The notes beneath the pieces were generated by a model, which worked only from the letters and a program-made list of their open reading frames with translations, was not told where the DNA came from and searched no databases. DNA of 63,970 bases from an uncultured Gammaproteobacteria bacterium. Lineage in GTDB: Bacteria; Patescibacteriota; Microgenomatia; PFEM01; JAHIFH01. The number at the start of each line of letters is the position of its first letter. The first letter of the stretch is position 1. Location: the NCBI GenBank assembly GCA_964347135.1, contig CAYFXA010000003.1, positions 1 through 63,970 of the forward strand. The letters run 5' to 3'. Made by a program: the position numbers and the translations under genes. Of this stretch, positions 30,118 to 53,059 are shown in pieces.

Positions 30118-30264
30118 ATTAAAGGTGCTCCCCAGTCCTGAGATTATTAGAACTTGTATTTCTAAAATAATAAAGGCTTTTGAGGATGTGGTGCAAACTG
30201 AACTAATTAGAGTTCGGTGGGAGGAGATTAAGAGACTTCAAGTCCAACCTGTCCTTGTCTCTAA

Positions 30265-31251
30265 CTAAACAACGGCAGACTCAAGTATTTCAAATTCCAA
30301 ATCATCAGCGTCCACCTTAGATTTAAGACCAATTGGCATTGGCAAATCCACAGTTTCGTGGCCAAAATCCATATTACCTATTATTAGAAAGTCATAATCT
30401 TTCAATACTTCCATGACAATTTCCTTAGGAGTTGGTTCATCAAGCCCCTCCCAAGCTGTTTTTTTGATACCTGGCAACTTACCAACCAACATTCCTGAGA
30501 TAACATCTAAAATTCCAGCATATTTGAGTTGATATAGGCCCTTTTCAATTCTGTAAGAAGGAGTGTTATCTATTTCCCAGAAAAAAATACAACCTCTTAA
30601 ATCTTCAGCTTTGGGGAAGTATTTTGTCCCCACAAGAGAAGCTAACATACTGAGGTTTCCTCCAAAGAGCATTCCTTCCACCCTTCCTTCCCTCCAACAT
30701 TCCCATTGGGTTAAGGGATTTACTTTTCCAATAGGCTCAGTGGAGGTAAGAACCTTAAAAAGCTGTTGTTTGCCATCTAATATCTTATTAGGTAGATGCT
30801 TCTCCCACATTTTACCTAATCCATAAGTCAACAAGGGCCCATGAAAACCCACCAAACCTACTCTAGTAAACAATGCGCTATGAACATTCGTAATATCACT
30901 GAACCCAATAAAAGGTTTTGGATTGGATTTAATCAGCTTGTAATCTAAGTGTTCCAAAACTGCGATTGCTGATTGTCCTCCATCGTGAACGATGATTGCT
31001 TTAATCTCTGGATCTGCAAACATCGAATTTATATCATCCGCTCTTTCTTCTGGAGTTCCTGCAAACCACCACTTAACCTTTCTTAAATTCTTACCCTCTT
31101 TGGCCTTAAATCCCAAACTTTTTAACTCTGCCACACCCTTTTTATATTGATTGTAATAATCACTTTTTTCATCTGTAGGAAAGGGGAAAGAGGTGACCAC
31201 TATTCCAATTGTATCGCCTTTATTTAATTTTGGTGGTTTTAACAATTTCAT
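30265..31251 (-). CDS. LD-carboxypeptidase (peptidase S66, LdcA/MccF-like)
   Basis: 328 aa. The nucleophile context is GFSDITNV and the C-terminal motif is DFGHE. Confidence 0.8.
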   Translation of the reverse strand: MKLLKPPKLNKGDTIGIVVTSFPFPTDEKSDYYNQYKKGVAELKSLGFKAKEGKNLRKVKWWFAGTPEERADDINSMFADPEIKAIIVHDGGQSAIAVLEHLDYKLIKSNPKPFIGFSDITNVHSALFTRVGLVGFHGPLLTYGLGKMWEKHLPNKILDGKQQLFKVLTSTEPIGKVNPLTQWECWREGRVEGMLFGGNLSMLASLVGTKYFPKAEDLRGCIFFWEIDNTPSYRIEKGLYQLKYAGILDVISGMLVGKLPGIKKTAWEGLDEPTPKEIVMEVLKDYDFLIIGNMDFGHETVDLPMPIGLKSKVDADDLEFEILESAVV

Positions 31252-31613
31252 TTCTCAAAATAATGTTTCTCATCTTGAAATCTATTAGGCCAAAAGTCTA
31301 GTTGTTCTTCTGGAATTTTTAATTTCTTACCATATTCAATTATTGGCTTCCAGGTTGAAATATGCGGTTTTACCTTAAAAACCTTATCCTTGAAAATCAC
31401 TATCAGCTCCTCATCATTGTAAAGATGGGCATACCAGGCCTCATCACTCCTCATGTTGTCTTGAATTTTCTTAATCGTTTGTTCAACTTTCGAGTCGTTA
31501 ATCTCTATCCCATATATTCCCCAGCTTCCGCTTTGCTTTTTAGCAAAAATCTTAAACCTTTTAGGAAAAGTTTTATCTTCAAATTCTTGGTCAATTATTA
31601 TTCCGTGATACAT
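31248..31613 (-). CDS. hypothetical protein
   Basis: 121 aa with a 4-nt overlap to the downstream gene. No motif recognised. Confidence 0.45.
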   Translation of the reverse strand: MYHGIIIDQEFEDKTFPKRFKIFAKKQSGSWGIYGIEINDSKVEQTIKKIQDNMRSDEAWYAHLYNDEELIVIFKDKVFKVKPHISTWKPIIEYGKKLKIPEEQLDFWPNRFQDEKHYFEK

Positions 31614-31678
31614 TCTAACCAGATTTTATCAAAATCATAGTTTTATAGCTAACGATATAATATAGGTGGGGAGGAAGC

Positions 31679-32644
31679 ATGATTGTTGCAGTAGATGAAA
31701 CTGGGTCGTTCAGAGACTCAACAGGAAAAAGTTTTGGAATTGTCACGCTTGTAACCGTGACAGATAAAGAATGGAGTAAATTTTCAGACTTTATGAGTTC
31801 CCTCTTTCCTGATGGATTTATTGGGGTAAAAGGAAAGACCTTGACAACATCGCAAAGGAAAAATGTCCTCAAATATATTGGCAGTAAACCAGAAATTAAA
31901 TACACCGCCTTTTTATACGATCTAAGCGGAGGAAGCGATGAGTGGGTTGATTATCATAAAAAAGGAACGATTGAAAAAGCTGAAGCTAGGATAAGTGAGA
32001 TGGGAAACAAGCTTCATCCAAAATACCTTAAAGATATCAGGCTGTACCTTAACCAACTCAGAAGTTACAGCATCGGGGATTATGCAAAATTTGTCATGTT
32101 TACAGAATTATTTACCGAGTGGCAAAGATATTTTCAGTTTGATTATTTCTACACCCATATCGCTAACGACAGCTGGCGCATGCACCACATCATCGATACA
32201 CAAAACAAGCCAAACAAATTTATAAGACTAGTGCAAGCAACACTGAAGCTAACTACAAGTGAACTAAATCCGAATTATGGAATTTATACCCCAAAAGAGT
32301 GGGGATTAGACCATCCTTTCATTGAATATCATTCAAAAGATGGTGACCCGCAAAGACATGACGCTAGTAAATTTTATGAAGATTTTAGGATTGGTGATGA
32401 AAAAGTTGATGCTTCTCTTGTCCTTCCAGATATAATCGGCCACTCAATTATGTTTTCAATATTAAACAGAAAGGAAAAAGCTTGGCTCAAATGTTTAAAA
32501 AGACTTCGGCAAAATCGTTCTTTTACAATTACCACGAAACATAAACAAGGCTATTACCATATAACAGGGTTTGACAAATCAAAAGATCCGAGAGATGTCA
32601 ATCCTACGATTAAGGAACATTGGATTCTGATGAAAAAAATTTAG
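31679..32644 (+). CDS. hypothetical protein, DUF3800-like N-terminus
   Basis: 321 aa. MIVAVDETGSF resembles the DUF3800 start (xxxDESG). It is the only plus-strand gene at the edge of the accessory island. Confidence 0.45.
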   Translation: MIVAVDETGSFRDSTGKSFGIVTLVTVTDKEWSKFSDFMSSLFPDGFIGVKGKTLTTSQRKNVLKYIGSKPEIKYTAFLYDLSGGSDEWVDYHKKGTIEKAEARISEMGNKLHPKYLKDIRLYLNQLRSYSIGDYAKFVMFTELFTEWQRYFQFDYFYTHIANDSWRMHHIIDTQNKPNKFIRLVQATLKLTTSELNPNYGIYTPKEWGLDHPFIEYHSKDGDPQRHDASKFYEDFRIGDEKVDASLVLPDIIGHSIMFSILNRKEKAWLKCLKRLRQNRSFTITTKHKQGYYHITGFDKSKDPRDVNPTIKEHWILMKKI

Positions 32645-32723
32645 AAATGCAATGAAAATGTAATTGGATGAGACTAAGAAAAAACGGCCTTACAACTTTT
32701 TCCAAACAACTTATCTTTCCTAA

Positions 32724-32752
32724 TAGCCAGGATTTTCGACCTATGGCCGAAT
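32724..32752. repeat. island repeat, copy G (short, degenerate)
   Basis: CCAGGATTTTCGACCTATGGCC shares the GATTTTCGAMC..TGG core with copies A-F. Confidence 0.4.
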
Positions 32753-32760
32753 ATTATTAA

Positions 32761-32783
32761 CCCGCTATTGGACTCGAACCACC
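32761..32783. other. degenerate tRNA 3'-end-like fragment (possible island boundary/att scar)
   Basis: CCCGCTATTGGACTCGAACCACC compares with the plus-strand image of the tRNA-Asn 3' end, TCCGCGGGTAGGATTCGAACCTAC (37856-37879). The GGAyTCGAACC core matches 10/11. No cloverleaf can be drawn. Confidence 0.35.
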
Positions 32784-32901
32784 TAAATTTAGCCTGAAAA
32801 TGGTCGTAAAATACGGCTTAAATCTTCAAATGACGAGGATTTCTAAAGGAAAATCCAACTCAATTAGCCTTGAAGGTAGCTAAGTTCTAAATTGTGTCAA
32901 T

Positions 32902-32950
32902 CAGCTCGCCCGATGGGATGATTTTCGAACCGCTAATTGGCTAGAGCTAG
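32902..32950. repeat. island repeat, copy A
   Basis: CAGCTCGCCCGATGGGATGATTTTCGAACCGCTAATTGGCTAGAGCTAG. The ends form an imperfect inverted repeat (AGCTCGCC / GGCTAGAGCT). Confidence 0.6.
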
Positions 32951-33039
32951 TAAGATTCCCAGAAAAAACTGACTAGACTATGTCTGAACTTCTCCTACCA
33001 TTTTATTAAAAAGAGAATGTCTAAGTTTCCTGCTTTTTC

Positions 33040-33522
33040 CTAAAGGAATTTTAAAAAAAATTGAGCCGGACCTCGATAATAGTAATCTTCAATAATTCCC
33101 ACGGGTTTATAGCCATATTTTAAATAAAAACCAACGGCTCTTCTATCATCGGGGTTAGTGTGAACTATTACTTTTGGGATTTGTTTTTGCCGTGCAACTT
33201 TTTCAACTGCCCCCAGCAACTTACCACCAACACCTCGTCGCTGATACTGGGGTAAAACACCAATATTAGTTATCTGTAATTTATTTCTACCTTCACGCCC
33301 AAAAATAAAACTTTCCGGCTGGGCATGAACCACACCAATAACCAAATCTTTGTTTAAGGTAGCTTTAAAAGCAGTTGCCTTTTTACTATCAAGCGACCGC
33401 TGTGCCTCCTCAAAAGAATACCATTCGGCCAAATCGGCATCATCAGTTACAGAAAATGCTCGCTGGATAATTTCAGTAAACCTGTCAAATTTTTGAATAG
33501 AAGTAATCGTTGCCTTCTGCAT
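33040..33522 (-). CDS. GNAT-family N-acetyltransferase
   Basis: 160 aa. The acetyl-CoA motif A is QRRGVGGKLLGAVE. Confidence 0.85.
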   Translation of the reverse strand: MQKATITSIQKFDRFTEIIQRAFSVTDDADLAEWYSFEEAQRSLDSKKATAFKATLNKDLVIGVVHAQPESFIFGREGRNKLQITNIGVLPQYQRRGVGGKLLGAVEKVARQKQIPKVIVHTNPDDRRAVGFYLKYGYKPVGIIEDYYYRGPAQFFLKFL

Positions 33523-33579
33523 AATCTGAATAATAATTTAATTATACTAAAATCGAGGGTTGTATTCTATCTGGAATAG

Positions 33580-33726
33580 AAACGAGACGATTTTCGAATT
33601 GAGCTCGAAGGGCGTAAGTTTAATATAACCAAGAGTTTTTCCCATATTATCAAGACTTTTGAAGATTTTAGGTTTGTGCAGGAGTTGAGGGAGGAAATAA
33701 ATAAGTTAAAACCTTGTTTAGCTTTA
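33580..33726. repeat. island repeat, copy B (core plus tail ending in GTTTAGCTTTA)
   Basis: The core GAGACGATTTTCGAATTGAGCTCG is at 33583-33606. The tail ...GAAATAAATAAG...GTTTAGCTTTA (33716-33726) is shared with copy D. Confidence 0.5.
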
Positions 33727-33743
33727 GCCAGTTAATCGGAAAG

Positions 33744-34205
33744 CTATCTAATACTTTTCTCCCATTTTCTGTATATTTCTAAAGCCTCATCAAAGTAGGT
33801 TTTATCTTGAATGAATTCAATCTTTCTATTTAGTTTCTTAACAATTCTTTCAAAATCGTGATTGCCCTCATAAGAATATTTCAAATTGACATCATTTCGA
33901 GCTAAAACATAGTAAACTCTTTTAATCCCAGACCAATAAATCTTGCCTAAACACATCAGGCATGGAGCTAAAGAAGTATATAACTCGTATTCTCCTAATT
34001 GGTCATCGGTCTCCGCCGTTACTTTATCAATCAACTTTGTTTCTGCATGAAGGTGCTGATGAGGATAAGCACTGCTTGTTTCGGTACCAATAATTTTATT
34101 TCCTTCAACAATAACTGCCCCAGCAGGAAATTTTCCTTGTTCAAGCGAGTCTTTTGACAACTCTATTGCCTTTTTTATAAAGTTTTTATTCATTTTTATC
34201 CCCAC
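33744..34205 (-). CDS. CMP/dCMP-type zinc deaminase (nucleoside/tRNA-adenosine/guanine deaminase-like)
   Basis: 153 aa. Motifs are HAETKLI (HAE) and PCLMCLGKI (PCxxC). The start may be the ATG at 34193. Confidence 0.8.
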   Translation of the reverse strand: MGIKMNKNFIKKAIELSKDSLEQGKFPAGAVIVEGNKIIGTETSSAYPHQHLHAETKLIDKVTAETDDQLGEYELYTSLAPCLMCLGKIYWSGIKRVYYVLARNDVNLKYSYEGNHDFERIVKKLNRKIEFIQDKTYFDEALEIYRKWEKSIR

Positions 34206-34699
34206 ATTCTTTTAAGAGCAGGAAAACGCTCCATGTTTAAATGGTCCATAACAGCAATATTCCAGCCTGTATGTAATACTTCATGCTGGTCTAATGCCCA
34301 AAGCATATCGACAACATCAATCAGCTTTTTGCTCCATGGAACCTGAACCTTTTTCTTGCATTTTTCCTCACTGGCTAAAATAGCGATTAATTCCTGGTCT
34401 GCTTTTTTAAGCTCAGATAGCAGTTCCTTTTTGCTTTTTGCCTTCAGTTCTTGATTGTAGAAATCTCCAAATTTCAGCCTTCCTTTTTCAACCGCCAGCA
34501 TATAAGTTCGCTGGACATTAATTTGATGGGCCAAACTTTCTCTGGGGGAATCTGATTTCCTGTCAGGAGTATCTACCATCCGAAAGTCAAACTTGTTTTC
34601 AGGAACTCGTTCATAAAATTCCCTGTTTATCTCTCGATTGGCAAAAAATGTTTTTAAAAAGTCTTTTGCTTTTGGGTTGGTTACTTTTGAAATGTCCAT
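34196..34699 (-). CDS. DinB-family (DinB_2-like) four-helix-bundle protein
   Basis: 167 aa with conserved His positions (LAHQINV, HEVLHTGW). It overlaps the deaminase gene by 10 nt. Confidence 0.65.
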   Translation of the reverse strand: MDISKVTNPKAKDFLKTFFANREINREFYERVPENKFDFRMVDTPDRKSDSPRESLAHQINVQRTYMLAVEKGRLKFGDFYNQELKAKSKKELLSELKKADQELIAILASEEKCKKKVQVPWSKKLIDVVDMLWALDQHEVLHTGWNIAVMDHLNMERFPALKRMWG

Positions 34700-34706
34700 T
34701 TTCTAT

Positions 34707-34712
34707 ATTTTA
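34707..34712 (-). promoter_or_regulatory. -10 box TAAAAT, 7 nt upstream of the DinB ATG (leaderless design)
   Basis: The minus strand reads TTGAGGTAAAATATAGAAATG. Confidence 0.35.
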
Positions 34713-34830
34713 CCTCAAGCAAAGGAAATTTATAAGTTTAGCTTCAATTTTCCCTTCGCACTAAGGGATTCTATTAGAGGCGATTTAAGGCTAGTTTCTG
34801 CCTGAAGTTCTTGGGTATAATAAGTTCCAA

Positions 34831-34925
34831 CTGGCTCGCTCTAGTTGATGATTTCCGAACCGTTAATTGGGTTCATCCTGAGATGGTTTATCGGAAATCT
34901 GTTTTATTTCTTGAGCATTATTCTC
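34831..34925. repeat. island repeat, copy C (long form)
   Basis: CTGGCTCGCTCTAGTTGATGATTTCCGAACCGTTAATTGGGTTCATCCTGAGATGGTTTATCGGAAATC... aligns over ~95 nt with copy E. Confidence 0.65.
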
Positions 34926-35094
34926 TCCACTAAAGAATCTTATTAATTTGAACTTTGTCTAGGAACCTTAAATGAAGTGCACTGAAGCTATCGCAAAAAG
35001 AAAGGGTCAGTACCTCCTGGTTTTTGTAATCCTTGAGATGCTGACCCACTTTGTGAGATTGTAAACTGGCACCCGTAAACAACGTAGGAATCGG

Positions 35095-35334
35095 TTATCC
35101 TTTGGTAGATTCACCTTTCTTCCCTAATCGAACGGATGTACCAGTCCAATAGGCAGGACTCCCTTGCCTATTGGTAACAGGAGAGCCTCCTATGTGAAGA
35201 CGTCCACATTCTCCACAAGGAAAGGCGTTAGTGGCAGAGGAACAACCAGTCTGAAGTAAAACGGGAGTGTTTATGTCAATTACGCCCCTGCAACCCTCCT
35301 CTTCACAACTCATCTCCTCTTGTGTATCGTTCAT
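35095..35334 (-). CDS. small Cys-rich (zinc-ribbon-like) hypothetical protein
   Basis: Start moved to the ATG at 35334, preceded by GAGGAGGTTGTG (SD). MNDTQEEMSCEEEGCRG...CGECGRLH contains 2 CxxC-like pairs. Confidence 0.5.
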   Translation of the reverse strand: MNDTQEEMSCEEEGCRGVIDINTPVLLQTGCSSATNAFPCGECGRLHIGGSPVTNRQGSPAYWTGTSVRLGKKGESTKG

Positions 35335-35463
35335 CACAACCTCCTCTTTCCCTCTCTTTCCTAAACTTAACCACGAACCCTCCTTAAACAAGTATCGATG
35401 AGCCTATATTCAATTGTGCTGGTAATTATACCAAATTAGAAGCAAATTTCAATCTTATAGAAT

Positions 35464-35595
35464 GCTAGCTCGCTAGATGGGACGATTTTCGAATTGTGGA
35501 GTGGGTGAGTTTGATTAAAAATCCCAAGGAAATGATGGTTAAAATAAATCAGGTATTAGCTCTTTGTGGACAAAATTAGAACCAGTTTAGCTTTA
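35464..35595. repeat. island repeat, copy D (core plus tail ending in GTTTAGCTTTA)
   Basis: GCTAGCTCGCTAGATGGGACGATTTTCGAATTGTGGAGTGGGTGAG, with tail AAAATAAATCAG...GTTTAGCTTTA (35585-35595). Confidence 0.6.
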
Positions 35596-35599
35596 AAAT

Positions 35600-36469
35600 C
35601 TAACTTTTTCTGTGCTGAATTAAGGCTCCTGTAATTATCAGCAGTAAACCAATAAGCTGGGCAATAACTATTCTCTCATTAAGAAGGACAAATATATATA
35701 CCAATGAGGCAAACGGAGTTAAATACGCAAGACTCGCAACTCCTACGGTTTTTCCTAGATTAAGAGCCTTAAACCAGAGAAAATAAGCAATCGCTAGATT
35801 AAAGATGCCTAAAGATAAAATACCCCACAAACTGGTTTGTGTTGGCACAACTGGCTTACTTAAAAGTAACAAGGCGGGTATGGACAACAAAAACATCGTT
35901 GCAAAATAAACAAAATAACTAATGTTGATATCTTCTTTATTTTTCCTTCCTAAGTTAGAAAACAAACCCCAACATACTCCTGCAAAAAGGGCAAAACTTG
36001 CTCCTAACGGATTACTTATCCTGAATTCAGAAAAATCTCCTTTGGTGATAATTACTACTACGCCAATGAAACCAAGAAGAACGGCGAGCATTTTTTTGAC
36101 TGTCAATTTTTCATTAAATATTGGAATGGCAAAAACCACCACCATAATTGGCCAAATATAATTAAGCATCATTGCTTCGGATGCAGGAATCAATTTCAAA
36201 CTTAGCCAGTATGAAAAATAATAGAAAAATGCTGGGATTGCATACAAAGACAATTTGGCAAGCGATTTAGGTTTCAGTTTTCTAATAAGAGACAGTTTTT
36301 TAAGAAAAATAAGAAACACAAAATTAACAAGCGCAGCAATGAAGAAGATATAAAACTGAAGCTGGAAACTGTCCAAATCTTTTAAAGAAAGTTTACTAAC
36401 GGCAGCAAAAGACCCCCAAATTAAGACAACACCCAGAGTAAGTAAATAAGCCTTAATTCTGTCAGTCAT
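35600..36469 (-). CDS. EamA/DMT-superfamily transporter
   Basis: 289 aa with ~10 hydrophobic helices arranged as two EamA-like halves. Confidence 0.85.
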   Translation of the reverse strand: MTDRIKAYLLTLGVVLIWGSFAAVSKLSLKDLDSFQLQFYIFFIAALVNFVFLIFLKKLSLIRKLKPKSLAKLSLYAIPAFFYYFSYWLSLKLIPASEAMMLNYIWPIMVVVFAIPIFNEKLTVKKMLAVLLGFIGVVVIITKGDFSEFRISNPLGASFALFAGVCWGLFSNLGRKNKEDINISYFVYFATMFLLSIPALLLLSKPVVPTQTSLWGILSLGIFNLAIAYFLWFKALNLGKTVGVASLAYLTPFASLVYIFVLLNERIVIAQLIGLLLIITGALIQHRKS

Positions 36470-36475
36470 ATCCCA

Positions 36476-36503
36476 ATTCTACCATAACACCCCCCTCTAG
36501 CAA
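36476..36503 (-). promoter_or_regulatory. promoter TTGCTA-16-TGGTAGAAT, 6 nt upstream of the EamA ATG (leaderless design)
   Basis: The minus strand reads TTGCTAGAGGGGGGTGTTATGGTAGAATTGGGATATG. The TGGTAGAATTGGG(A/T)TATG block recurs upstream of the 2H-phosphoesterase gene. Confidence 0.45.
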
Positions 36504-36511
36504 ATATTACA

Positions 36512-36542
36512 AACCAAAAAAAAGCCCAGTAAATCGGGCTTT
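36512..36542 (-). terminator. rho-independent terminator (minus strand)
   Basis: The minus strand reads AAAGCCCGATTTACTGGGCTTTTTTTTGG. The stem is AGCCC/GGGCT (extendable with A-U pairs), followed by a run of 8 T. Confidence 0.55.
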
Positions 36543-36548
36543 CTATTC

Positions 36549-36672
36549 CTAGCTCGCCCTAGTTGATGATTTCCGAACTATGGAGTGGGCTCATCCTGGG
36601 GTGATTTATCAGAAGTCGGTGGAATTTTTACAGGTTTATGTTCATCGTGGGCGGAGTTAGAGCTAGTCTAAC
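36549..36672. repeat. island repeat, copy E (long form, flanked by an imperfect inverted repeat)
   Basis: CTAGCTCGCCCTAGTTGATGATTTCCGAACTATGGAGTGGGCTCATCCTGGGGTGATTTATCAGAAGTC... The left end CTAGCTCGCCC pairs with the right end GGGCGGAGTTAGAGCTAG. Confidence 0.65.
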
Positions 36673-36677
36673 TGCCT

Positions 36678-37226
36678 TCAACCAAACCTAATCTTTGCGA
36701 ACTCTTTCCAAGTTCTAGAACTACCCCTCTGTTCGTAAAGATATATTGAATCAATCTCAAACTCTATTTTACCTCTAAATCTAGCAAGTTCTTTTTTAAT
36801 TTTAGGCAAAACCTCTTTGGGAACTTTCTCCGCTATGGTCATATGGGGCGTATATTCTGACGGCGTATATTTGTGTCCTTTAAAAACATTCTTGATTTTC
36901 CCTTTAAGGGCTTTAGTGGTTTTAACCAAAAACTTTTTCATTAAATCCGCCGAGCCTTCGTCTAGTCTAAAATAGACTACATTATTCCTCTTGTTTTCAA
37001 AGAAATCTACCGAATCACATTTCACTTTCGCTACTGGGGTTTTTGAAAAACTTTTTTTAAGAGTGTTTATTACTTCTTTTTGTGAACTAGTAATTAAAAA
37101 AGGAGGATATATTGTGATATGCGGGGGAATCGCGTATCCCGTATATTTTGCATATTTCTCCCTATATTTATCAACAAAATCGCAGACTTTTCTTGGAGGA
37201 ACAACAATTACCAAATACCAGTTCAT
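36678..37226 (-). CDS. 2H phosphoesterase superfamily protein (LigT / 2'-5' RNA ligase-like)
   Basis: 182 aa with two HxT motifs: PPHITIYPPF and TPHMTIAEK. Confidence 0.8.
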   Translation of the reverse strand: MNWYLVIVVPPRKVCDFVDKYREKYAKYTGYAIPPHITIYPPFLITSSQKEVINTLKKSFSKTPVAKVKCDSVDFFENKRNNVVYFRLDEGSADLMKKFLVKTTKALKGKIKNVFKGHKYTPSEYTPHMTIAEKVPKEVLPKIKKELARFRGKIEFEIDSIYLYEQRGSSRTWKEFAKIRFG

Positions 37227-37232
37227 AACCCA

Positions 37233-37241
37233 ATTCTACCA
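37233..37241 (-). promoter_or_regulatory. extended -10 TGGTAGAAT, 6 nt upstream of the ATG (leaderless design)
   Basis: The minus strand reads TTTTGGTAGAATTGGGTTATG, a near-copy of the EamA promoter block. Confidence 0.4.
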
Positions 37242-37266
37242 AAACATCCTTCCTGGGGAAATTAAA

Positions 37267-37295
37267 AGCCAAAAAGCCCTCTGTTTCGGGCTTTT
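37267..37295 (-). terminator. possible rho-independent terminator (minus strand)
   Basis: The minus strand reads AAAAGCCCGAAACAGAGGGCTTTTTGGCTTTT. The GC stem is short (GCCC/GGGC plus A-U pairs). Confidence 0.4.
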
Positions 37296-37300
37296 ATATT

Positions 37301-37420
37301 CTTAGCTCCCCCTAAAGAACTTATTCTGCAACCAAGAGATAGAGTTTGACTTTACCTTTTCTGAGGTTAAAACAAACTTTGGTTTGTTGGGATAATTTTC
37401 GGACCTGCTTATTTATTGGG
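37301..37420. repeat. island repeat, copy F (split form)
   Basis: The left part is CTTAGCTCCCCCTAAAG (37301-37317). The core TTGGGATAATTTTCGGACCTGC (37387-37408) lies ~70 nt further on. Confidence 0.45.
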
Positions 37421-37526
37421 ATGAGTATGGAAGATGTTCTGGTAACAAACAAAAAGTCTCGCTTTATTGGTAGGCTAATGCCAAAAGCACAACAAAACGA
37501 GACTTGTATTGGGGGATCCAGGCAAG

Positions 37527-37760
37527 CTATCTGAGGAGATAGAGTTTATTGGCACCGGCCAGAATAGTCTCGCCCTCGGCGACATCTACTTCTGAGCCTT
37601 TCTGGTGGATTGACTCAACCTTGACCATTACACCAGTTGTTCCAGGATCTCTATCTAGTTGTACTGCGGCTTCAATATGGTGGTCGCCTTGACCAGCCTT
37701 ATACTGAACCCTTTGTCCTTTCCTCAACTTGCTTAATCCCTCATAACCTATGCGTTCCAT
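37527..37760 (-). CDS. hypothetical small protein
   Basis: 77 aa with a strong SD (AAGGAAGGAG) 6 nt upstream of the ATG. No motif recognised. Confidence 0.5.
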   Translation of the reverse strand: MERIGYEGLSKLRKGQRVQYKAGQGDHHIEAAVQLDRDPGTTGVMVKVESIHQKGSEVDVAEGETILAGANKLYLLR

Positions 37761-37809
37761 GATTAGCTCCTTCCTTTAAGGACTAATAGAAACACAGGTT
37801 GATGAGGGT

Positions 37810-37838
37810 ATTATAAATTATATGTGATGAATAGTCAA
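37810..37838 (-). promoter_or_regulatory. canonical sigma70 promoter TTGACT-17-TATAAT
   Basis: The minus strand reads TTGACTATTCATCACATATAATTTATAAT. It lies between the tRNA-Asn 3' end and the first island gene. Confidence 0.55.
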
Positions 37839-37854
37839 ACTATAGGATACATTG

Positions 37855-37926
37855 CTCCGCGGGTAGGATTCGAACCTACAACCAACTGCTTAACAGGCAG
37901 CCGCTCTACCATTGAGCTACCGCGGA
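37855..37926 (-). tRNA. tRNA-Asn (anticodon GTT)
   Basis: Hand-folded as TCCGCGG-TA-GCTC..GAGC-G-GCTGC CTGTTAA GCAGT-TGGTT-GTAGG TTCGAAT CCTAC-CCGCGGA-G. CCA is not encoded. Confidence 0.93.
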
Positions 37927-41638: not shown

Positions 41639-41645
41639 TTCTTAG

Positions 41646-41732
41646 CGGAGAGGGTGGGATTCGAACCCACGATAGCCTTTCGACTATACACGCTTTCCAA
41701 GCGTGGGCATTAAACCACTCTGCCACCTCTCC
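41646..41732 (-). tRNA. tRNA-Ser (anticodon GGA)
   Basis: GGAGAGG...CACGC TTGGAAA GCGTG, a long variable arm, then GTGGG TTCGAAT CCCAC CCTCTCC G. Confidence 0.9.
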
Positions 41733-42211
41733 TAAAATAACTTTTGTTGTTTTTCTGTTTCCTCTAAAATCCCTTTTGCCTTTTTTAAGGCTTTCTTTTC
41801 TGAATCAAAAGTTAACCGTTCGTAAGCCTCTTTAAAAGAAAGCCATTTAATTGCCGCGATTTTTTCCGCGTCTTCCTTTTTCTTTCCCTTCCCCTGATAT
41901 TCCATTAAAAATAAGGCAATTGTTTTAAAAATTCTGTTTTTGTTTTCGTCGTAGAAAAAGACTCTTAGGCTATCAACCTTTTCAACGACGTTTGCCTTGA
42001 TTCCTGTTTCTTCTTCTACTTCCCTTTTTGCTGTTTCTGTTGATTGCTCTCCTTCCTCAACCCAACCCTTGGGAAATTGCCAACGACCTTTACTCCAATG
42101 TCCGCCTCCTTCTGGTTGAATAATTAACCATAGAATTTCACCATTCTCCTTTTTAAAAACCACCCCACCAGCAGAATATTCCTTTTTAACTGGCTTTTTC
42201 TTTTTAGCCAT
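41732..42211 (-). CDS. NUDIX hydrolase
   Basis: Start moved to the ATG at 42211 (MAKKKKPVKKEY), because the 20 upstream codons of the track ORF are the reverse image of tRNA-Arg. The Nudix box is GWVEEGEQSTETAKREVEEETG. Confidence 0.85.
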   Translation of the reverse strand: MAKKKKPVKKEYSAGGVVFKKENGEILWLIIQPEGGGHWSKGRWQFPKGWVEEGEQSTETAKREVEEETGIKANVVEKVDSLRVFFYDENKNRIFKTIALFLMEYQGKGKKKEDAEKIAAIKWLSFKEAYERLTFDSEKKALKKAKGILEETEKQQKLF

Positions 42212-42212
42212 G

Positions 42213-42285
42213 CGTCCCTGAGAGGATTCGAACCTCCGACCCTCAGTTTCGGAAACTGATACTCTATCCACTGAGCTACAGGGAC
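42213..42285 (-). tRNA. tRNA-Arg (anticodon CCG)
   Basis: GTCCCTG-TA-GCTC..GAGT-A-TCAGT TTCCGAA ACTGA-GGGTC-GGAGG TTCGAAT CCTCT-CAGGGAC-G. Confidence 0.9.
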
Positions 42286-42291
42286 TCAGGG

Positions 42292-42378
42292 CGGTGGGAG
42301 AGGGATTCGAACCCCCGTAAGACTTTCATCTCGCTTGGTTTTCGAAACCAGCCCGTTAAACCACTCCGGCATCCCACC
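42292..42378 (-). tRNA. tRNA-Ser (anticodon CGA)
   Basis: GGTGGGA...anticodon loop TTCGAAA, a long variable arm (AGAT GAAA GTCT), then GGGGG TTCGAAT CCCTC TCCCACC G. The anticodon stem has one mismatch or bulge. Confidence 0.82.
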
Positions 42379-42383
42379 AATAG

Positions 42384-42457
42384 TGCGCCCAGTGAGACTC
42401 GAACTCACAACCTTCTCGTTCGCAACGAGATGCTCTTTCCAATTGAGCTACGGGCGC
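42384..42457 (-). tRNA. tRNA-Arg (anticodon GCG)
   Basis: GCGCCCG-TA-GCTC..GAGC-A-TCTCG TTGCGAA CGAGA-AGGTT-GTGAG TTCGAGT CTCAC-TGGGCGC-A. Confidence 0.9.
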
Positions 42458-42462
42458 ATTTA

Positions 42463-43041
42463 TCAAGAAGGTGTTTCTAAAGGAACCCGTTGCGAGACCC
42501 ACTCGCTTGACCGATCAATCCAGGTTTTTTCTGGTTCCTCAAAAAGAAGATAATCAGAAAGAATCTTTTCAACTTGTTCCCGTTTTGCCTCACCCAATAA
42601 GATCAACAACCGCCGCGATAAACCAAACAAAGTCTCAACATTTAAAATCTTATCCCCGAATTTTTCCGTGAACCAAAATCTCCCGAGTCCCTCCCAATCA
42701 TATTTTCTCTTCCCAGTAACAATCCCCCGATTGGTAATTTTATGCTCGACTTTTCGGGGCTCAACCGTGGCCATGATATAAACCACAAAAGCCAAAGCAA
42801 TTAGAACCAAAATCAAAACCCACTCCCTTAAAAAAAGCAAAATCACAATTGACAAAAAAACAAAGGCTCCGGCAGTGGTAAAAAACTCCCGGCTGCGCCT
42901 TTTGAAGGGTCTGTCAGGAGCCGACCAAGTAAGCAAGGTTTTTAATGGCTCTGGTCTGACCACTTGGACTTTCTCATTCTCAGGCTTTTCCTTTTTCAAA
43001 GTACTTGGTGGAGTTTTTGGTTGTTTTTCTTGAGCAGGCAT
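42463..43041 (-). CDS. hypothetical membrane protein
   Basis: 192 aa with a basic N-terminus and two adjacent hydrophobic helices (FFTTAGAFVFLSIVILLFL, VLILVLIALAFVVYIM). It is bracketed by tRNA genes. Confidence 0.5.
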   Translation of the reverse strand: MPAQEKQPKTPPSTLKKEKPENEKVQVVRPEPLKTLLTWSAPDRPFKRRSREFFTTAGAFVFLSIVILLFLREWVLILVLIALAFVVYIMATVEPRKVEHKITNRGIVTGKRKYDWEGLGRFWFTEKFGDKILNVETLFGLSRRLLILLGEAKREQVEKILSDYLLFEEPEKTWIDRSSEWVSQRVPLETPS

Positions 43042-43083
43042 GTTTTTTCTTTAATTAATCTTTAACAACTCTATTGTAACATG

Positions 43084-43170
43084 CGGTGGGGGTGGGATTC
43101 GAACCCACGATGGTCTTACGACCATACTGCTTTTCAAGAGCAGCGCAATCGTCCACTCTGCCACCCCACC
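43084..43170 (-). tRNA. tRNA-Ser (anticodon TGA)
   Basis: GGTGGGG...CTGCT CTTGAAA AGCAG, a long variable arm, then GTGGG TTCGAAT CCCAC CCCCACC G. Confidence 0.9.
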
Positions 43171-43173
43171 TGG

Positions 43174-43259
43174 CGGAAGGAGTGGGATTCGAACCCACGT
43201 GGCCTTTTCAGACCAACGGTTTAGCAAACCGCCCCGTTTAACCACTCCGGCATCCTTCC
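43174..43259 (-). tRNA. tRNA-Ser (anticodon GCT)
   Basis: GGAAGGA...GCGGT TTGCTAA ACCGT, a long variable arm, then GTGGG TTCGAAT CCCAC TCCTTCC G. The next 3 nt (43171-43173) read CCA and abut the next tRNA. Confidence 0.9.
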
Positions 43260-43296
43260 TAAATTGTCTCTATTTTAACAAAAAATGGCTTAAATT

Positions 43297-43944
43297 TCAC
43301 CTTGCCAAAGTCAATCCCCAAACCTCTTTTACGCCTGCTTTTTTAAGTACTAGACCGCATTCGCGCAAAGTGGAGCCCGTTGTCCAAACATCATCAAAAA
43401 GAATAACCTTTTTTAATTTAGCCTTAGGAGTAATTTTAAAAGCGTTACGAATGTTCTTTTTCCGCTCTTTTCCCTTTAAATCAACTTGAGGTTTGGTGTA
43501 TTTGTAACGAATTAAGACATCATTTCGAATGCCTGAACCAAGCTTCCGAGCTAATATCTTGCCCAAGAGCTCGGCCTGATTAAAGCCTCGCCAGCGTTGG
43601 CGGCGAGGATGAAGGGGAATGGGAACAAGGGTGAAAGATTTGAAATAAGGTAGTTTGGGAGTTAATCCAATCAGCTCTTCAGCCAAATCAGTGATAAATT
43701 TGTATTTCAATTGACCAATTGCTTCTTTTACAATGCCTTCGTAAGCAAAAATTGAAGTTAAATTATCAAGCGAGTATTTAGTTTGGCAACGAGGATGGGT
43801 TTTGCCCCCAATGGCTGGTTTTTGACAAACCGGGCAAATTGGCTTCTCAACTGACTTAATTTTCTTTAGACATTCCTGACAAAAATACTTTCCCCACTGA
43901 CCACAACCCAAACAGCAACGGGGAAATAAAAAGTCAAGCAGCAT
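43297..43944 (-). CDS. comF: ComF-family phosphoribosyltransferase-like protein
   Basis: 215 aa. N-terminal Cys pairs are CLGCG..CQEC and CPVC..HPRC. The PRT motif is ILFDDVWTTGSTL. Confidence 0.85.
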   Translation of the reverse strand: MLLDFLFPRCCLGCGQWGKYFCQECLKKIKSVEKPICPVCQKPAIGGKTHPRCQTKYSLDNLTSIFAYEGIVKEAIGQLKYKFITDLAEELIGLTPKLPYFKSFTLVPIPLHPRRQRWRGFNQAELLGKILARKLGSGIRNDVLIRYKYTKPQVDLKGKERKKNIRNAFKITPKAKLKKVILFDDVWTTGSTLRECGLVLKKAGVKEVWGLTLAR

Positions 43945-43987
43945 TAAATCAATTCTAGCAAAAAGACACCCGAAGGTGTCTCTCTTG

Positions 43988-44350
43988 TGGAGATGGCCGG
44001 GTTGAACCGACGTCCGAAAAAAATTTCTAAAAACTTCTACAAGTTTAGCTAACTCTTGTTTGTCGTTTTAGCCTGATCCTGTTAGCCGGAAAGCTAAAAC
44101 CAAGACCAATTAATCCTTGGTTCAATTGGTTTAGTCGAACCAATTGAATTGTATCCTGACTAGGTTCACACCCATAGTTTCTCGTCAGGAGAAAAAACCA
44201 TAGATGCCATTTATGCTGAGGCGCCTTTAGGCGACAGCATAAAGAGGGGCAACATTTTTGTTGCCAATTATGTTTTGAAACCTTTTAGCGGCTTATTTCA
44301 GGCCGACTTGCCGTTTTTAAAGAACCCTTTCCGTCGAAACCTACATCCCC
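43988..44350 (-). ncRNA. ssrA: tmRNA (ssrA)
   Basis: The 5' end is GGGGATGTAGGTTTCGACGG. The 3' tRNA-like end is GGTTCAACCCGGCCATCTCCA. The candidate tag ORF at 44227-44265 is GGC AAC AAA AAT GTT GCC CCT CTT TAT GCT GTC GCC TAA (GNKNVAPLYAVA). Its stop sits in a hairpin loop (TGCTGTCGCC TAAA GGCGCCTCAGCA). Confidence 0.88.
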
Positions 44351-47639: not shown

Positions 47640-49334
47640 TCACTTTTCCTCAATATTAAACAACGGGCCAACGATTTGAATGTTAGCCGGAGCACGAAGA
47701 TTGAAAAAGTTTTTGAACTCAGGCCCCTCAAAGGTTTTTGTTCCTCCGTCACCAGAAATGGTTACTGCCGTTGTTCTTCCCAATCCTTTGTCCCAACCAA
47801 CGGAACCACTAGAAATACTGTTAAAAGAAGTAATGTCGCGATTTTCAAGTTCCTGCTTAACCCTACCCGCATCCCAAGTATCCACTCCATCAGGATTAGG
47901 CTTATCTACTTGGGGAAGATGTTTTTGGGTTGAAGAATCAGCCTTAGCTAAAAGCAAAACATTAACAATGTCAGCTACTTCCTCTGACTTAAGCCAAGCA
48001 GAACTGGCGTATTCTTTTCGCCAACCTTGAGCAGCATAAAAACAAGGTGAATCTCTATCATAAGCTTTTGATTGAAGGTCAGCAAAACTATCAACGCCAT
48101 CACTAGTATCTCGCATTCTTTTTGTCCAAGGTCTATGACTCCAGCCAACATCAGAAGAATAAAAAGTGTAGCCACCCGCGGTTGAAGCATACCAAGCGGT
48201 AATTGGCTGACCGCTGTGAACCGCGACCTCACCTTCGGTTGCTTTTACGGCTGCTTCCCAATTGCCTCCTTTGTTACCACCTTTGTAAACCTGACATTGC
48301 TGGGTGGTACAAATTTCCTTGGCACCGTTATCCGTATAGGCCAAGGCATAGGACCGAGCCGCCACTGCCTGAGCCTTTTGGGCTTCAGCAGGCCAGCTTT
48401 CAGGCATCTCATAAATGCCTAGCAAATATTGCTCCAAAGACATTTCGCCGTAGCCCTGAACCTTGATATTGATATTGGCGCGCTTTTCAATAGAAATTCC
48501 TTCATAATAAGCATTAAGAATGTCGCGATAAGACTGGCCGGCTTTGGCTCGACCATAAGCCCCATACTGATTCATTCCTACCCGATGAGGAATACCATAA
48601 GTGTAAAAGGCAAAAGCAGGACCAAAGCCTGGGTCTCTTTCTCGGTCATCAACACAAAACAAGGGACCAGCTCCTAAAGTAGTGGGAAGATTCAAACTAG
48701 CCAGTTTTTGAGCTAATAATTGTTGCTGTTTAGCGGTTAAAGAAGCAATAGCAGATTCCACTTTCTCTACCTCTCCTTCTAAGAAGGTGGCGCGCTCATC
48801 AACTTGTTTTTGGAGTTGAGAAAGACTGGTTTGAGTTCTTTCAAGAACATCCTTATCTTCTCCAAGTTTTTTCAAATCAGAAGAAATTTGAACAATCATC
48901 AGTCGGTCTTGATTAACCACTTTAAGACGAAAGGCAAGTTCTCGGGCAAGTTCTTGAGCACTAGCAGAAGAAAGAAATAAAAGAAGGGGTGAAGATTTCT
49001 GACTTTCGATATAGTAACTTCTTACCTTGGCAGCCAAAAGCTCCTCTTGAAAAGCGAGGTCAACTTCTCTTTCAAGAATACTAACTTCCAGTTGCTTTAA
49101 ACTCATCCCAATCGCATCAAGCCTTTTTTGAATATCAGCCAATTGAGTTTTGAGGTTAGCGAGTTCAGCTTTGTTGCGTTCATGAGCAGGTTTTAAGGCA
49201 TCAATAATTTTCTGGATTTCGCCAATTTGACAATCATAGTCGCTTTCTGGACAGGCGGCTCGGACAATTAAAACAGAAGAAAAAATGAATAAAAGAAAAA
49301 TTCCTAATCCTGCCAACCCCTTAGCCTTTTTCAT
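47640..49334 (-). CDS. SpoIID/LytB-domain peptidoglycan-remodelling protein with an N-terminal coiled coil
   Basis: 564 aa with a signal/TM helix and a long heptad-like region. SpoIID motifs are AQAVAARSYA, CTTQQCQVYKG and YASTAGGYT. Confidence 0.78.
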   Translation of the reverse strand: MKKAKGLAGLGIFLLFIFSSVLIVRAACPESDYDCQIGEIQKIIDALKPAHERNKAELANLKTQLADIQKRLDAIGMSLKQLEVSILEREVDLAFQEELLAAKVRSYYIESQKSSPLLLFLSSASAQELARELAFRLKVVNQDRLMIVQISSDLKKLGEDKDVLERTQTSLSQLQKQVDERATFLEGEVEKVESAIASLTAKQQQLLAQKLASLNLPTTLGAGPLFCVDDRERDPGFGPAFAFYTYGIPHRVGMNQYGAYGRAKAGQSYRDILNAYYEGISIEKRANINIKVQGYGEMSLEQYLLGIYEMPESWPAEAQKAQAVAARSYALAYTDNGAKEICTTQQCQVYKGGNKGGNWEAAVKATEGEVAVHSGQPITAWYASTAGGYTFYSSDVGWSHRPWTKRMRDTSDGVDSFADLQSKAYDRDSPCFYAAQGWRKEYASSAWLKSEEVADIVNVLLLAKADSSTQKHLPQVDKPNPDGVDTWDAGRVKQELENRDITSFNSISSGSVGWDKGLGRTTAVTISGDGGTKTFEGPEFKNFFNLRAPANIQIVGPLFNIEEK

Positions 49335-49372
49335 TTCCTCTCAAGTATATCACAGCCATTATTCAGCCCATA

Positions 49373-49402
49373 TTGCGCGTCACAAAATATTTGTGCTAGA
49401 CT
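49373..49402 (+). promoter_or_regulatory. promoter TTGCGC-18-TGCTAGACT, 7 nt upstream of the pilin-1 ATG
   Basis: TAGACTGGATTTGATG (49397-49412) is nearly identical to TAGACTGAATTTGATG upstream of pilin-3. Confidence 0.45.
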
Positions 49403-49409
49403 GGATTTG

Positions 49410-49757
49410 ATGAAAAAAGTCCTTTTATCATTTTTGTTAATTTTCCTCTTTACTTCCCCATTAACCTCAAACGCCCTCGCTGCTGAATGCGTTCCTACTG
49501 CCATTGGTTGCATTGATATCAGTGGCCCCAGTGAGTTTGTTGATACCATCCTAAGATTAGCCATTGGTTTGGCTGGAGGAATTGCTATGCTTCTAATTAT
49601 TTTTGGTGGGATTCAAATCTTAACCTCAGCCGGCAATCCTGAAAGGGTTAAGGCAGGAAAAGAAATGATTACTTCTGCCATCGCCGGTTTACTTTTAATT
49701 ATTTTTTCTGTCTTTATTTTGCGTATAATTGGAGTGCAAATACTAGATATTTTTTAA
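49410..49757 (+). CDS. T4SS pilin-like protein 1 (VirB2/TrbC-type)
   Basis: It has the ATG at 49410 and a signal peptide (MKKVLLSFLLIFLFTSPLTSNALA). The layout is helix-loop-helix, LAGGIAMLLIIFGGIQILTSAGNPERVKAGKEMITSAIAGLLLIIFS. Confidence 0.65.
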   Translation: MKKVLLSFLLIFLFTSPLTSNALAAECVPTAIGCIDISGPSEFVDTILRLAIGLAGGIAMLLIIFGGIQILTSAGNPERVKAGKEMITSAIAGLLLIIFSVFILRIIGVQILDIF

Positions 49758-49758
49758 A

Positions 49759-50818: not shown

Positions 50819-50839
50819 GTCGAACGTATTGTACCACGC

Positions 50840-51901: not shown

Positions 51902-51941
51902 CGAAAAGAGTATAGCGGAAACTCTTCTAAGTTGCAAAAAG

Positions 51942-51971
51942 TTGACAGAGGGAATTTGATATTGATAGACT
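51942..51971 (+). promoter_or_regulatory. sigma70 promoter TTGACA-18-TAGACT, 7 nt upstream of the pilin-3 ATG
   Basis: TTGACAGAGGGAATTTGATATTGATAGACTGAATTTGATG. There is no room for an SD. Confidence 0.55.
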
Positions 51972-51978
51972 GAATTTG

Positions 51979-52305: not shown

Positions 52306-52309
52306 TAAA

Positions 52310-53052: not shown

Positions 53053-53059
53053 AGATATC

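Follow-up and report, generated by a model that had tools for sequence, protein, structure and literature searches.

An integrase-less array of accessory genes beside tRNA-Asn in a CPR bacterium, with repeats that match C-terminal tails of large serine recombinases

What are the degenerate repeats that separate small accessory genes beside a tRNA-Asn gene, and which process left them there? The question is raised by a stretch of 63,970 nt (contig CAYFXA010000003.1 of GenBank assembly GCA_964347135.1; the whole stretch is called the window below) from a bacterium of the Candidate Phyla Radiation (CPR; Patescibacteria), a group with tiny genomes and few described mobile elements. The original prediction, made from the letters alone, saw at 32700–37855 an island of single-gene modules separated by at least seven copies of one repeat. 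It likened the island to integron arrays and ended with two possibilities, an undescribed cassette-accretion mechanism or serial attachment-site (att) scars of elements that target tRNA genes. The analysis presented here bears out the second: the island is likely an integrase-less array, left by serial integration and accretion of elements with a large serine recombinase (LSR) beside tRNA-Asn, and the scars would be P' arms that lie inside the 3' coding end of the LSR gene.

Repeats and the C-termini of large serine recombinases

The repeat core GAYGATTTYCGAAY is present in five exact copies, at 32917, 33586, 34847, 35481 and 36565, where 0.01 copies are expected from shuffled sequences; the repeat is real. 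All five are located on the plus strand, each between minus-strand genes. Two of the copies first listed are not significant when taken alone, namely those at 32724 (a 16-nt match at 88%) and at 37387 (two mismatches, the chance level; a nested remnant is possible there). The copy at 37301 is genuine, but it belongs to another family, named LPL below, and its sharing with the rest at DNA level is limited to a hairpin and a GCTC core; the one at 33580 is a composite, in which the start of one repeat is followed, from the GCTC at 33603, by a repeat of a different family. Moreover, a strong seventh copy was found at 30127–30268, outside the coordinates first proposed, so that the island is wider (30127–37853) than had been thought. 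The copies of this final set are called H, B, C, D, E, F and G' from left to right. Two alignment details also had to be corrected: the pair that aligns at length consists of the copies at 34831 and 36549 (~91 nt) and not of copies C and E (~95 nt), and GTTTAGCTTTA, described as the end of a tail shared by copies B and D, is matched exactly only at 33716 and 35585. Nucleotide composition does not separate the island from its flanks.

All copies have in common an open plus-strand frame that reads L-A-[RL]-[WV]-D-D-F-R-[TI]-x-x-W, and in the window the frames stay open over 24–47 codons. Most window copies directly follow a stop codon and are without a start codon. Small conserved open reading frames (ORFs), which the shared frame suggested, were considered and rejected: copies D and F are 76% identical over 91 nt, their substitutions are spread evenly over the three codon positions (9/8/10), and Pfam returned nothing. 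No Rfam family was matched by the copies either, and a tRNA model search of them found no match, even at E <= 10.

A scan of related CPR genomes for the repeat, as the original prediction had advised, was fruitful. Using the pattern GCTCGC-N7-GAYGATTTYCGAAY and one genome per species, we found 92 loci against about 10 expected by our own estimate, mostly in CPR lineages (Saccharibacteria, Paceibacteria, Microgenomates, WWE3 and others). Generally, the frame of the CPR matches is open for 31–35 codons past the core, and many copies in other genomes have a possible TTG start just before the CTC. For example, in locus L034 (L-numbers denote the compared loci and P-numbers recombinase sequences), the same frame is also open over 499 codons upstream of the repeat. 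Its product of 527 aa contains Resolvase, Recombinase and Zn_ribbon_recom domains, a set that identifies it as an LSR, and the last 31 residues of this protein are the repeat (LALTDDFRTIDW..). The majority of the other scan loci contain only this terminal part, which we call the tail, with no recombinase body.

We then compiled a catalogue of 179 related LSR sequences, in which all five tail families of the island are seen as C-terminal extensions: LARW (tails B and E), LAL (D and F), LEGR/LEDR (C), LPL (G') and LPSP (H). Judged from sequence, each repeat is the 3'-terminal coding segment (~30–45 codons) of an LSR gene. Enzymes with Resolvase, Recombinase and zinc-ribbon domains are encoded in the related loci L034, L094, L095, L097, L099, L102 and L103. 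Their similarity to known integrases is weak, the sole match in the PDB being the TP901-1 catalytic domain (E = 3e-5); in an AlphaFold model with a mean predicted local distance difference test (pLDDT) score of 68, the tail is predicted to be helical at a low pLDDT of 54–58. Four of the elements (L094, L095, L099 and L103) have a small HTH_17 gene upstream of the recombinase, as its immediate neighbour only in L099, and the product of this gene may be regarded as a candidate directionality factor. The intact elements of these four loci also carry restriction-modification or defence genes, the types seen among them being type II and type III systems, Dam, ThaI, TIR and a reverse transcriptase.

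Junctions at the tRNA 3' end and variation between relatives

The best database match of the L034 enzyme is the LSR of L094, which is 100% identical to it and covers only 94% of it. The DNA of both loci is identical through ..AACTGGCTC (...CCCCTAACTGGCTC) and diverges just after TGGCTC; past this breakpoint L034 continues into the tail, and L094 into tRNA-Asn sequence in antisense. Similarly, the LSR ORF reads into antisense tRNA-Gln in L095 and into antisense tRNA-Asn in L102. Peptides encoded by the antisense strand of a tRNA gene terminate most family members with a recognisable junction (85 of 106): 52 end in WLRG, WLPR or WLRR directly before the stop, as is obtained by reading CTC-CGC-GGG-TAG of tRNA-Asn, and 33 end in other tRNA-antisense peptides. 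One left arm of L056, consisting of a terminator hairpin and ctattccta, occurs both before a tail and before tRNA-Asn, in each case directly ahead of GCTC. The GCTC core is present in every tRNA-Asn gene compared (21 of 21) and in all window tails. Because homology breaks there and the arms rejoin there, the exchange can be placed within GCTC, which on the antisense strand corresponds to the first C of CCA, the discriminator base and the last two acceptor bases; the CT would be the crossover dinucleotide.

The two kinds of right arm differ in spacing. Between the tail consensus and the tRNA-Asn consensus, the inner 11 nt align without any shift (56% identity). For the outer segment, which contains TTCGAAC, the best alignment is reached at an outward shift of the tail by 5 nt (55%, against at most 38% at the other offsets from -3 to +10), a figure to be read with the caveat that the tail set had been chosen by a fixed-spacing pattern. 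In other words, TTCGAAC of the tail sits 5 bp further from the core than TTCGAAC of the tRNA T-loop. Rutherford et al. (2013; PMC3783163) placed the motif of the serine-integrase zinc-ribbon domain at 16–24 in attP and at 11–19 in attB half-sites. If CT is taken as the crossover, the motif falls at ~16.5–24.5 in the tail and at ~11.5–19.5 in the tRNA. The offset of 5 bp thus matches the attP versus attB rule, which points to the tail as the P' arm and to the 3' end of tRNA-Asn as the B' arm. The tail would then double as the P' half-site of the attP of its own recombinase. The position of attP within the integrase frame would explain why the repeat is a C-terminal coding segment of the enzyme, and would make this C-terminus differ between the free and the integrated state.

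A general palindromic att site of ~54 bp, suggested by eye in L069, L072, L025, L077 and L080, was rejected, as there is no overall symmetry and the spacing does not fit a P-type half-site. The tail start is found in inverted form (GTTCGAAAATCG.. or AAAATCGTGCC) in the left flanks of these five loci, with a spacing that exceeds that of a P-type half-site by ~6 bp, and the feature is not general.

A profile search with the tail at DNA level detected arrays of two to four copies on one strand, 0.5–2.4 kb apart, in 27 loci, and the ORFs between tails in these arrays are mostly antisense to the tails, like in the window. Among 73 tail-bearing loci, tRNA-Asn(GTT) makes up 17 of the 24 tRNAs near tails, and all but one of these (16 of 17) are located downstream of the tails on the opposite strand, which is the geometry of the window. 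At least 10 loci retrieved by the tail pattern alone turned out to be the orthologous rpoD/tRNA-Asn locus, with RpoD identities of 52–97%. An exact-protein search with the RpoD of the window yielded near-identical contigs only.

The advice to compare this locus between relatives was also rewarded, and the orthologous rpoD/tRNA-Asn loci hold different modules or an LSR. L056/L108, L107, L102 and L103 have tRNA-Asn, rpoD and dnaG in common with the window (RpoD identity 66–97%), and none of the window cargo proteins was found in them. L056/L108 (RpoD 97%) contain one module of 1.3 kb, composed of a LARW tail and a 376-aa gene, with the hairpin arm repeated perfectly over 39 nt on its two sides. 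L107 (RpoD 95.6%) contains a homologue of this 376-aa gene behind an LPL-type arm, L102 an LSR fused to tRNA-Asn, and L103 two tandem LSR genes, one of which is joined to a tail at a distance of 7.8 kb from the tRNA, while the other sits beside the tRNA. Cargo also varies next to one and the same enzyme: P0100, an LSR of 535 aa with its tail, is identical across samples and precedes different antisense cargo in different samples.

Another pattern of divergence is seen in L100 and L101 (~11056–11210). These loci, from two samples, have in common 9.4 kb of upstream sequence, an identical recombinase with its tail and another 150 nt, and then diverge right after a hairpin (ATTTGCTTAAC..GTTAAGCAAAT ATGACTC), not at a GCTC core. 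The antisense cargo past the hairpin comprises TIR, PD-(D/E)XK, reverse transcriptase and methylase on one side of the comparison and small nucleotidyltransferase-type genes on the other.

Left arms recur as well, and at least three types can be told apart. LEFT-2 is a terminator hairpin (AAAGCCC..GGGCTTT) plus ~9 nt, that is, a B arm of tRNA-Asn type. LEFT-3 is a block of 23 nt (TTGGGTATAATAAGTTCCAACTG) that is the same in five genomes, which diverge directly past GGCTC; it resembles the last LSR codons (..SSNW), has the size of a P-type half-site, and is joined in other loci to tails, to the LPL arm or to tRNA-Asn. LEFT-4 is an arm with an outward promoter; besides its joint with tRNA-Asn in this window, the type is seen before tails in L029, L030 and L093. 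The joining is combinatorial, each of the three being found with tails of several families and with tRNA-Asn. For example, L109 contains five near-identical LEFT-2 arms, each with a different tail family. The 2H gene of the window recurs in L109 and L110 at 84% nucleotide identity, in a unit of hairpin and tail, antisense 2H gene and next hairpin, where the neighbour genes are others and the tail is of LPIV type. Left arms in L056 and L109 are repeated near-perfectly (39 nt) at every junction.

Some features of the wider neighbourhood were also recorded. Six tRNA genes (Ser x4, Arg x2) and a tmRNA gene follow rpoD-dnaG at 41645–44350 in the window, and the same six tRNA genes are found in the same order in L102, so the neighbourhood of the hotspot is syntenic. 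The tRNA-Asn gene of L056 (5735–5953; also in L108) holds a group I intron in its anticodon loop (RF00028, 87 bits, E = 5e-23), and its exons are 100% identical to the intron-less tRNA-Asn of the window. The dnaG gene beside rpoD in L103 (19491–20288) has a faint intein-splicing match and a much longer product (965 aa).

The island, its modules and its possible origin

The island (30127–37853) is made up of seven modules with one to three genes each, and holds seven tails of five families. Each module starts with a plus-strand tail and its cargo is mostly antisense; all seven junctions keep the GCTC core, from 30127 up to the 3' end of tRNA-Asn at 37854. The GNAT, zinc deaminase, DinB, EamA and 2H genes that had been recognised by eye are confirmed by Pfam, and the gene called DUF3800-like finds no Pfam support. 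Tail peptides are given below up to their stop codon.

Module M0 starts with tail H (LPSP; 30127–30268, plus strand, GCTC core at 30127), which is the leftmost copy detected and marks the left limit of the island; its peptide LPSPEIIRTCISKIIKAFEDVVQTELIRVRWEEIKRLQVQPVLVSN matches the C-terminal tail of the recombinase fragment P0151 (phmmer E = 4e-18). Its cargo consists of an LD-carboxypeptidase gene (30265–31251, minus), a 121-aa ORF (31248–31613, minus) and a 321-aa ORF without Pfam family (31679–32644, plus), and no recurrent arm type was recognised at its right end. To the right of the doubtful 32724 copy, a segment of 55 nt (32749–32803) is 80% identical to positions 6188–6241 of L058, a locus that has four other arm types in common with the window.

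Module M1 begins with tail B (LARW; 32904–32976, plus; LARWDDFRTANWLELVRFPEKTD; nhmmer E = 1.8e-10, phmmer E = 3.7e-7 against P0168) and carries the GNAT acetyltransferase gene (33040–33522, minus; PF00583, E = 1.9e-14). A LARW-type tail-start fragment at its right end (33583–33602, plus; CGAGACGATTTTCGAATTGA), directly left of the next core, is likely a nested scar. In M2, tail C (LEGR; 33603–33735, plus; LEGRKFNITKSFSHIIKTFEDFRFVQELREEINKLKPCLALAS) has 86–91% nucleotide identity to L058 and L073 (phmmer E = 5e-17) and matches the recombinase C-ends of P0154 and P0176. It is followed by genes for a cytidine/dCMP deaminase (33744–34205, minus) and a DinB_2 protein (34196–34699, minus), both assigned by Pfam, and by a LEFT-3 arm (34811–34833, plus; tblastn E = 2.7e-5).

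Module M3 contains tail D (LAL; 34834–34933, plus; LALVDDFRTVNWVHPEMVYRKSVLFLEHYSLH; nhmmer E = 4.7e-7, also matched by tblastn against recombinase C-ends), a Cys-rich 79-aa ORF without Pfam family (35095–35334, minus) and a LEFT-4 arm (35418–35467) with an outward promoter-like TTGAAA-16-TATAAT on the minus strand (35452–35425). Module M4 has tail E (LARW; 35468–35579, plus; LARWDDFRIVEWVSLIKNPKEMMVKINQVLALCGQN; nhmmer E = 1.3e-16, phmmer E = 1e-7), a gene for an EamA-family transporter (35600–36469, minus; PF00892, E = 2.7e-35) and a LEFT-2 arm (36512–36551), in which the hairpin AAAGCCC..GGGCTTT precedes ctattccta.

In M5, tail F (LAL; 36552–36660, plus; LALVDDFRTMEWAHPGVIYQKSVEFLQVYVHRGRS; nhmmer E = 1.3e-7, also tblastn) is inserted exactly at the core position of an LPIV-type tail remnant (IVGGVRASLTA..; 36644–36690, plus), which has no core of its own and was recognised by alignment to the intact LPIV tail of L109. 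The cargo is the 2H/LigT-like phosphoesterase gene (36678–37226, minus; PF13563, E = 2.6e-21), and a second LEFT-2-type hairpin arm (37267–37304) forms the right end. Both terminators of the original prediction were recovered by a terminator scan in these LEFT-2 arms (36519–36544 and 37272–37295). Module M6 starts with tail G' (LPL; 37305–37395, plus; LPLKNLFCNQEIEFDFTFSEVKTNFGLLG), which resembles the recombinase C-ends P0134, P0135 and P0156 (phmmer E = 5.7e-7 against P0135) and has 87–88% nucleotide identity to L035 and L107. A degenerate DDFRT-like stretch (37388–37405, plus; TGGGATAATTTTCGGACC), which is the two-mismatch match mentioned above, is possibly a nested tail remnant. After a 77-aa ORF without Pfam family (37527–37760, minus), a LEFT-4-type arm (37804–37853) is joined to tRNA-Asn and contains, as predicted, the promoter TTGACT-17-TATAAT on the minus strand (37838–37810). 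The tRNA-Asn gene itself (GTT anticodon; 37854–37926, minus) also stands as first read; its 3' end, with the GCTC core on the plus strand, would be the B' arm and integration target, and the junction of LEFT-4 with it looks like an intact attB (B and B').

Elsewhere in the window, a gene of the class A beta-lactamase family (12200–13114) and a gene with an archaeo-eukaryotic primase small-subunit domain (13546–14322) are located beside two PBP1-type genes, and the region 49000–63970 (L112), with at least 10 small T4SS_pilin-family genes, PrgI-like and TraC-like genes and large unannotated proteins, is a type IV secretion or conjugation-like locus.

How could such an array arise? We propose that the LSR elements of CPR bacteria use the extreme 3' end of tRNA genes, most of all of tRNA-Asn(GTT), as integration site, where the target would be the junction of the B arm with the tRNA and the crossover would fall inside the 4-nt GCTC. 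In the presumed order of events, integration would bring the element's tail to the distal end (attL-type), beside the former 3' neighbour of the tRNA, which is often the tRNA's terminator hairpin, and would leave a tail-less recombinase body fused to the antisense tRNA at the other end (attR). Excision via the element's own attL or a more distal one could carry neighbouring modules along or leave them behind, and arrays might grow by a cycle of repeated integration, accretion-type excision and decay. Accretion and mobilisation of this kind have been proposed for the Dehalococcoides ssrA islands (PMC3146451). The window would represent an LSR-less leftover, in which the tRNA junction is attB-like again (a regenerated attB).

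Several observations weigh against this scheme. The window is without a recombinase: as the original prediction had noted for integrases, none of any class, tyrosine included, was found among its ORFs by Pfam and recombinase searches. It holds the sites alone, and it is from other genomes that recombinase action here is inferred. Searched with a profile of the LSR C-terminal region, the six-frame translated island gave nothing significant, where only ~5 codons of a body remain, at tail D; the idea of decayed recombinase bodies upstream of every tail was dropped on this ground, and a weak tblastn match upstream of tail E (E = 0.024) is not relied on. The left arms show no general symmetry with the right arms (0.251 against a control of 0.247) and no attP/attB offset, and their near-perfect duplication is not predicted by a simple attP x attB reaction, so that accretion or gene conversion is needed. 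L107 and L056 have common cargo with different tails, and their homology starts only at the cargo promoter, which means that the core is not the place of every exchange. For some intact elements, the far end (attL) was not found (L095, searched by profile and repeat, and L099), and protein and DNA-pattern searches of viral contigs found no free circular form. Finally, the reading as a whole comes from computation.

The alternative that survives best assigns the array an active role, in which an LSR from another place in the genome would act in trans to excise and re-insert integrase-less single-gene modules, each bounded by a site of left arm, GCTC and tail; the array would then be a working integron-like platform for gene shuffling and not a set of scars. 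We consider this possible but rather unlikely. Such activity would suit the constant-polarity arrays of 0.5–2.4 kb modules in at least 27 loci, the five near-identical left arms of L109 with five tail families, the one-gene module of L056 between perfect 39-nt repeats, the 2H module that is kept as a unit among different neighbours, the 23-nt "mini P arm" that is invariant in five genomes without a recombinase gene, and the solo tails whose frames stay open over a constant 31–35 codons. However, a B–P' junction is of attL type, and known LSRs need a directionality factor and a matching attR to act on it (PMC3783163). Neither a circular module nor an empty/filled pair for a single module was observed, no coding constraint is visible in the substitutions that separate tail D from tail F, the truncation or nesting of several tails looks like decay, and passive accretion and mobilisation alongside an LSR element explain the same patterns. 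The farther-reaching thought of a CPR counterpart of the integron built on a serine recombinase, with modules captured, left and re-mobilised at the tRNA-Asn hotspot by rpoD and the C-terminal swap of 30–45 residues as a switch of the integrase, is similarly tentative, and we would sooner bet against it.

Much less probable is that the tails are independent small genes, or functional RNA elements in the 3' untranslated regions of the antisense cargo, and that their recombinase similarity is secondary. The open frames of 24–47 codons, the possible TTG start before CTC in many copies elsewhere, and the position of tails between cargo stop codon and terminator on the antisense strand could be taken in this sense, but most window copies come directly after a stop codon with no start codon, third positions show no bias, Pfam and Rfam are silent and the folds are not better than those of shuffles. 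The continuity with full-length recombinase ORFs and the tRNA junctions already explain where the tails are located. Similarly remote, and slightly more so, is an ordinary tRNA-gene island of tyrosine integrases with decayed copies of the tRNA-Asn 3' end as repeats. The site is indeed the 3' end of tRNA-Asn, tail B weakly resembles a tRNA 3' end (shuffle p = 0.018), and tyrosine integrases are the usual agents at tRNA genes (tDNAs; PMC4383910). Against it, no copy is matched by a tRNA model, G' compared with tRNA-Asn is not significant, the tRNA similarity needs the 5-nt shift typical of LSR attP versus attB, the copies run on for 60–110 nt as recombinase coding sequence, and no tyrosine integrase was seen among the genes called in five related element contexts. 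The segment 37301–37345, once considered a decayed tRNA-Asn copy, failed the shuffle test (p ~0.25–0.5) and is a tail of the LPL family. The least probable of all is the integron likeness of the original prediction, i.e. a classical integron or a cluster of attC sites lacking integron-integrases (CALIN), whose attC repeats recombine as folded single strands by a tyrosine integron integrase: it is suggested by same-orientation small genes with a repeat after each and by one imperfect inverted repeat seen by eye in copy F, and is contradicted by the lack of a tyrosine recombinase in the window and of R''/R' cores, by bottom-strand single-stranded folds no better than shuffles (z -1.9 to +1.0), by the homology of the copies to LSR C-termini, and by the second, nested tail remnant that accounts for the inverted repeat of F.

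If the array is read as a leftover of serial LSR integration, tRNA-Asn beside rpoD-dnaG may be a conserved hotspot in several CPR lineages, and a single recombinase family may be a major route by which accessory genes, among them transporters, acetyltransferases, restriction-modification and defence genes, are gained and lost across several of them. The recombinase tail could be used as a marker by which such islands are recognised, and their limits set, in fragmented metagenome assemblies. Moreover, a C-terminus that depends on the state of the element is a testable candidate for directionality control, and these enzymes, with att sites located to within a few bases, are candidate tools for CPR genetics.

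Relation to known systems

Integrons and CALINs are similar in their small cassettes of the same polarity, their single type of site repeat and the existence of integrase-less arrays. They differ in that a tyrosine integrase, IntI, acts there on folded attC hairpins, whereas a serine LSR and double-stranded mosaics of half-sites are concerned here; moreover, the cassettes of the present island carry their own promoters and terminators, and the array is anchored at a tRNA gene.

The serine integrases of phages (A118/LI, Bxb1, phiC31, TP901-1) have the same domain set, a short common core, hybrid attL/attR products, and an outer motif placed 5 bp more distally in attP-type than in attB-type arms (PMC3783163). 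The difference is that attP here would lie inside the integrase ORF and integration would swap the last 30–45 codons; the left and right arms are not detectably symmetric, and searches of viral contigs by protein and DNA pattern found no phage context and no free form. An attP inside the integrase gene and a tRNA target are known from the SSV1-type integrases of archaeal fuselloviruses, which are tyrosine recombinases. When they integrate, a part of the int gene is cut off from the rest, and int fragments remain beside tRNA genes. In that case, large N and C parts are split, while the enzyme here is a serine recombinase from which only a short C-terminal tail is detached.

The staphylococcal cassette chromosome (SCC, including SCCmec), with its recombinases CcrAB or CcrC, is closer in its logic, as cassettes are inserted serially by serine recombinases at the 3' end of a conserved gene, forming tandem composite arrays that are split by integration-site repeats and carry accessory and defence cargo, with units that lack an integrase. 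However, its target is the protein gene rlmH instead of tRNA-Asn, its recombinases are neither split nor altered by integration, and SCC elements measure tens of kb.

The other of the two closest precedents, besides SCC, are the ssrA islands of Dehalococcoides (DsiB, a CcrB-like LSR; PMC3146451), where an LSR also integrates at the 3' end of a tDNA, tandem islands downstream of the gene are each bounded by a short repeat, many islands are without an integration module, and content varies between strains; their authors invoke accretion and cis-mobilisation (PMC3146451). Likewise, the island in the window starts at a tRNA 3' end, consists of repeat-bounded units and differs in content between relatives, as is characteristic of tandem tDNA-anchored islands. 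The ssrA islands target the tmRNA T-loop, while the last bases of tRNA-Asn (other tRNAs for relatives) are used here. The ssrA repeat reproduces 20 bp of the ssrA 3' end, while the repeat here is the C-terminal coding segment of the recombinase; the window repeats are not copies of the tDNA 3' end, to which their similarity is only weak. In addition, the modules here often contain a single gene, the host clade is CPR, and one recombinase gene takes the place of the DsiA/DsiB pair: in L094, L095 and L099 no paired small serine recombinase was found beside the LSR, and each element has a single recombinase gene.

In summary, the Dehalococcoides ssrA islands and SCC are known cases in which a serine recombinase drives accretion at a tDNA, and to this extent the suggestion of an undescribed accretion mechanism does not hold. 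What does hold is that the design and its spread in CPR were not found described in the searchable literature, which is no proof of absence. Compared with the precedents, the new features are the tRNA-Asn target, the recombinase's own C-terminal segment as the repeat, the many single-gene modules and the CPR-wide spread.

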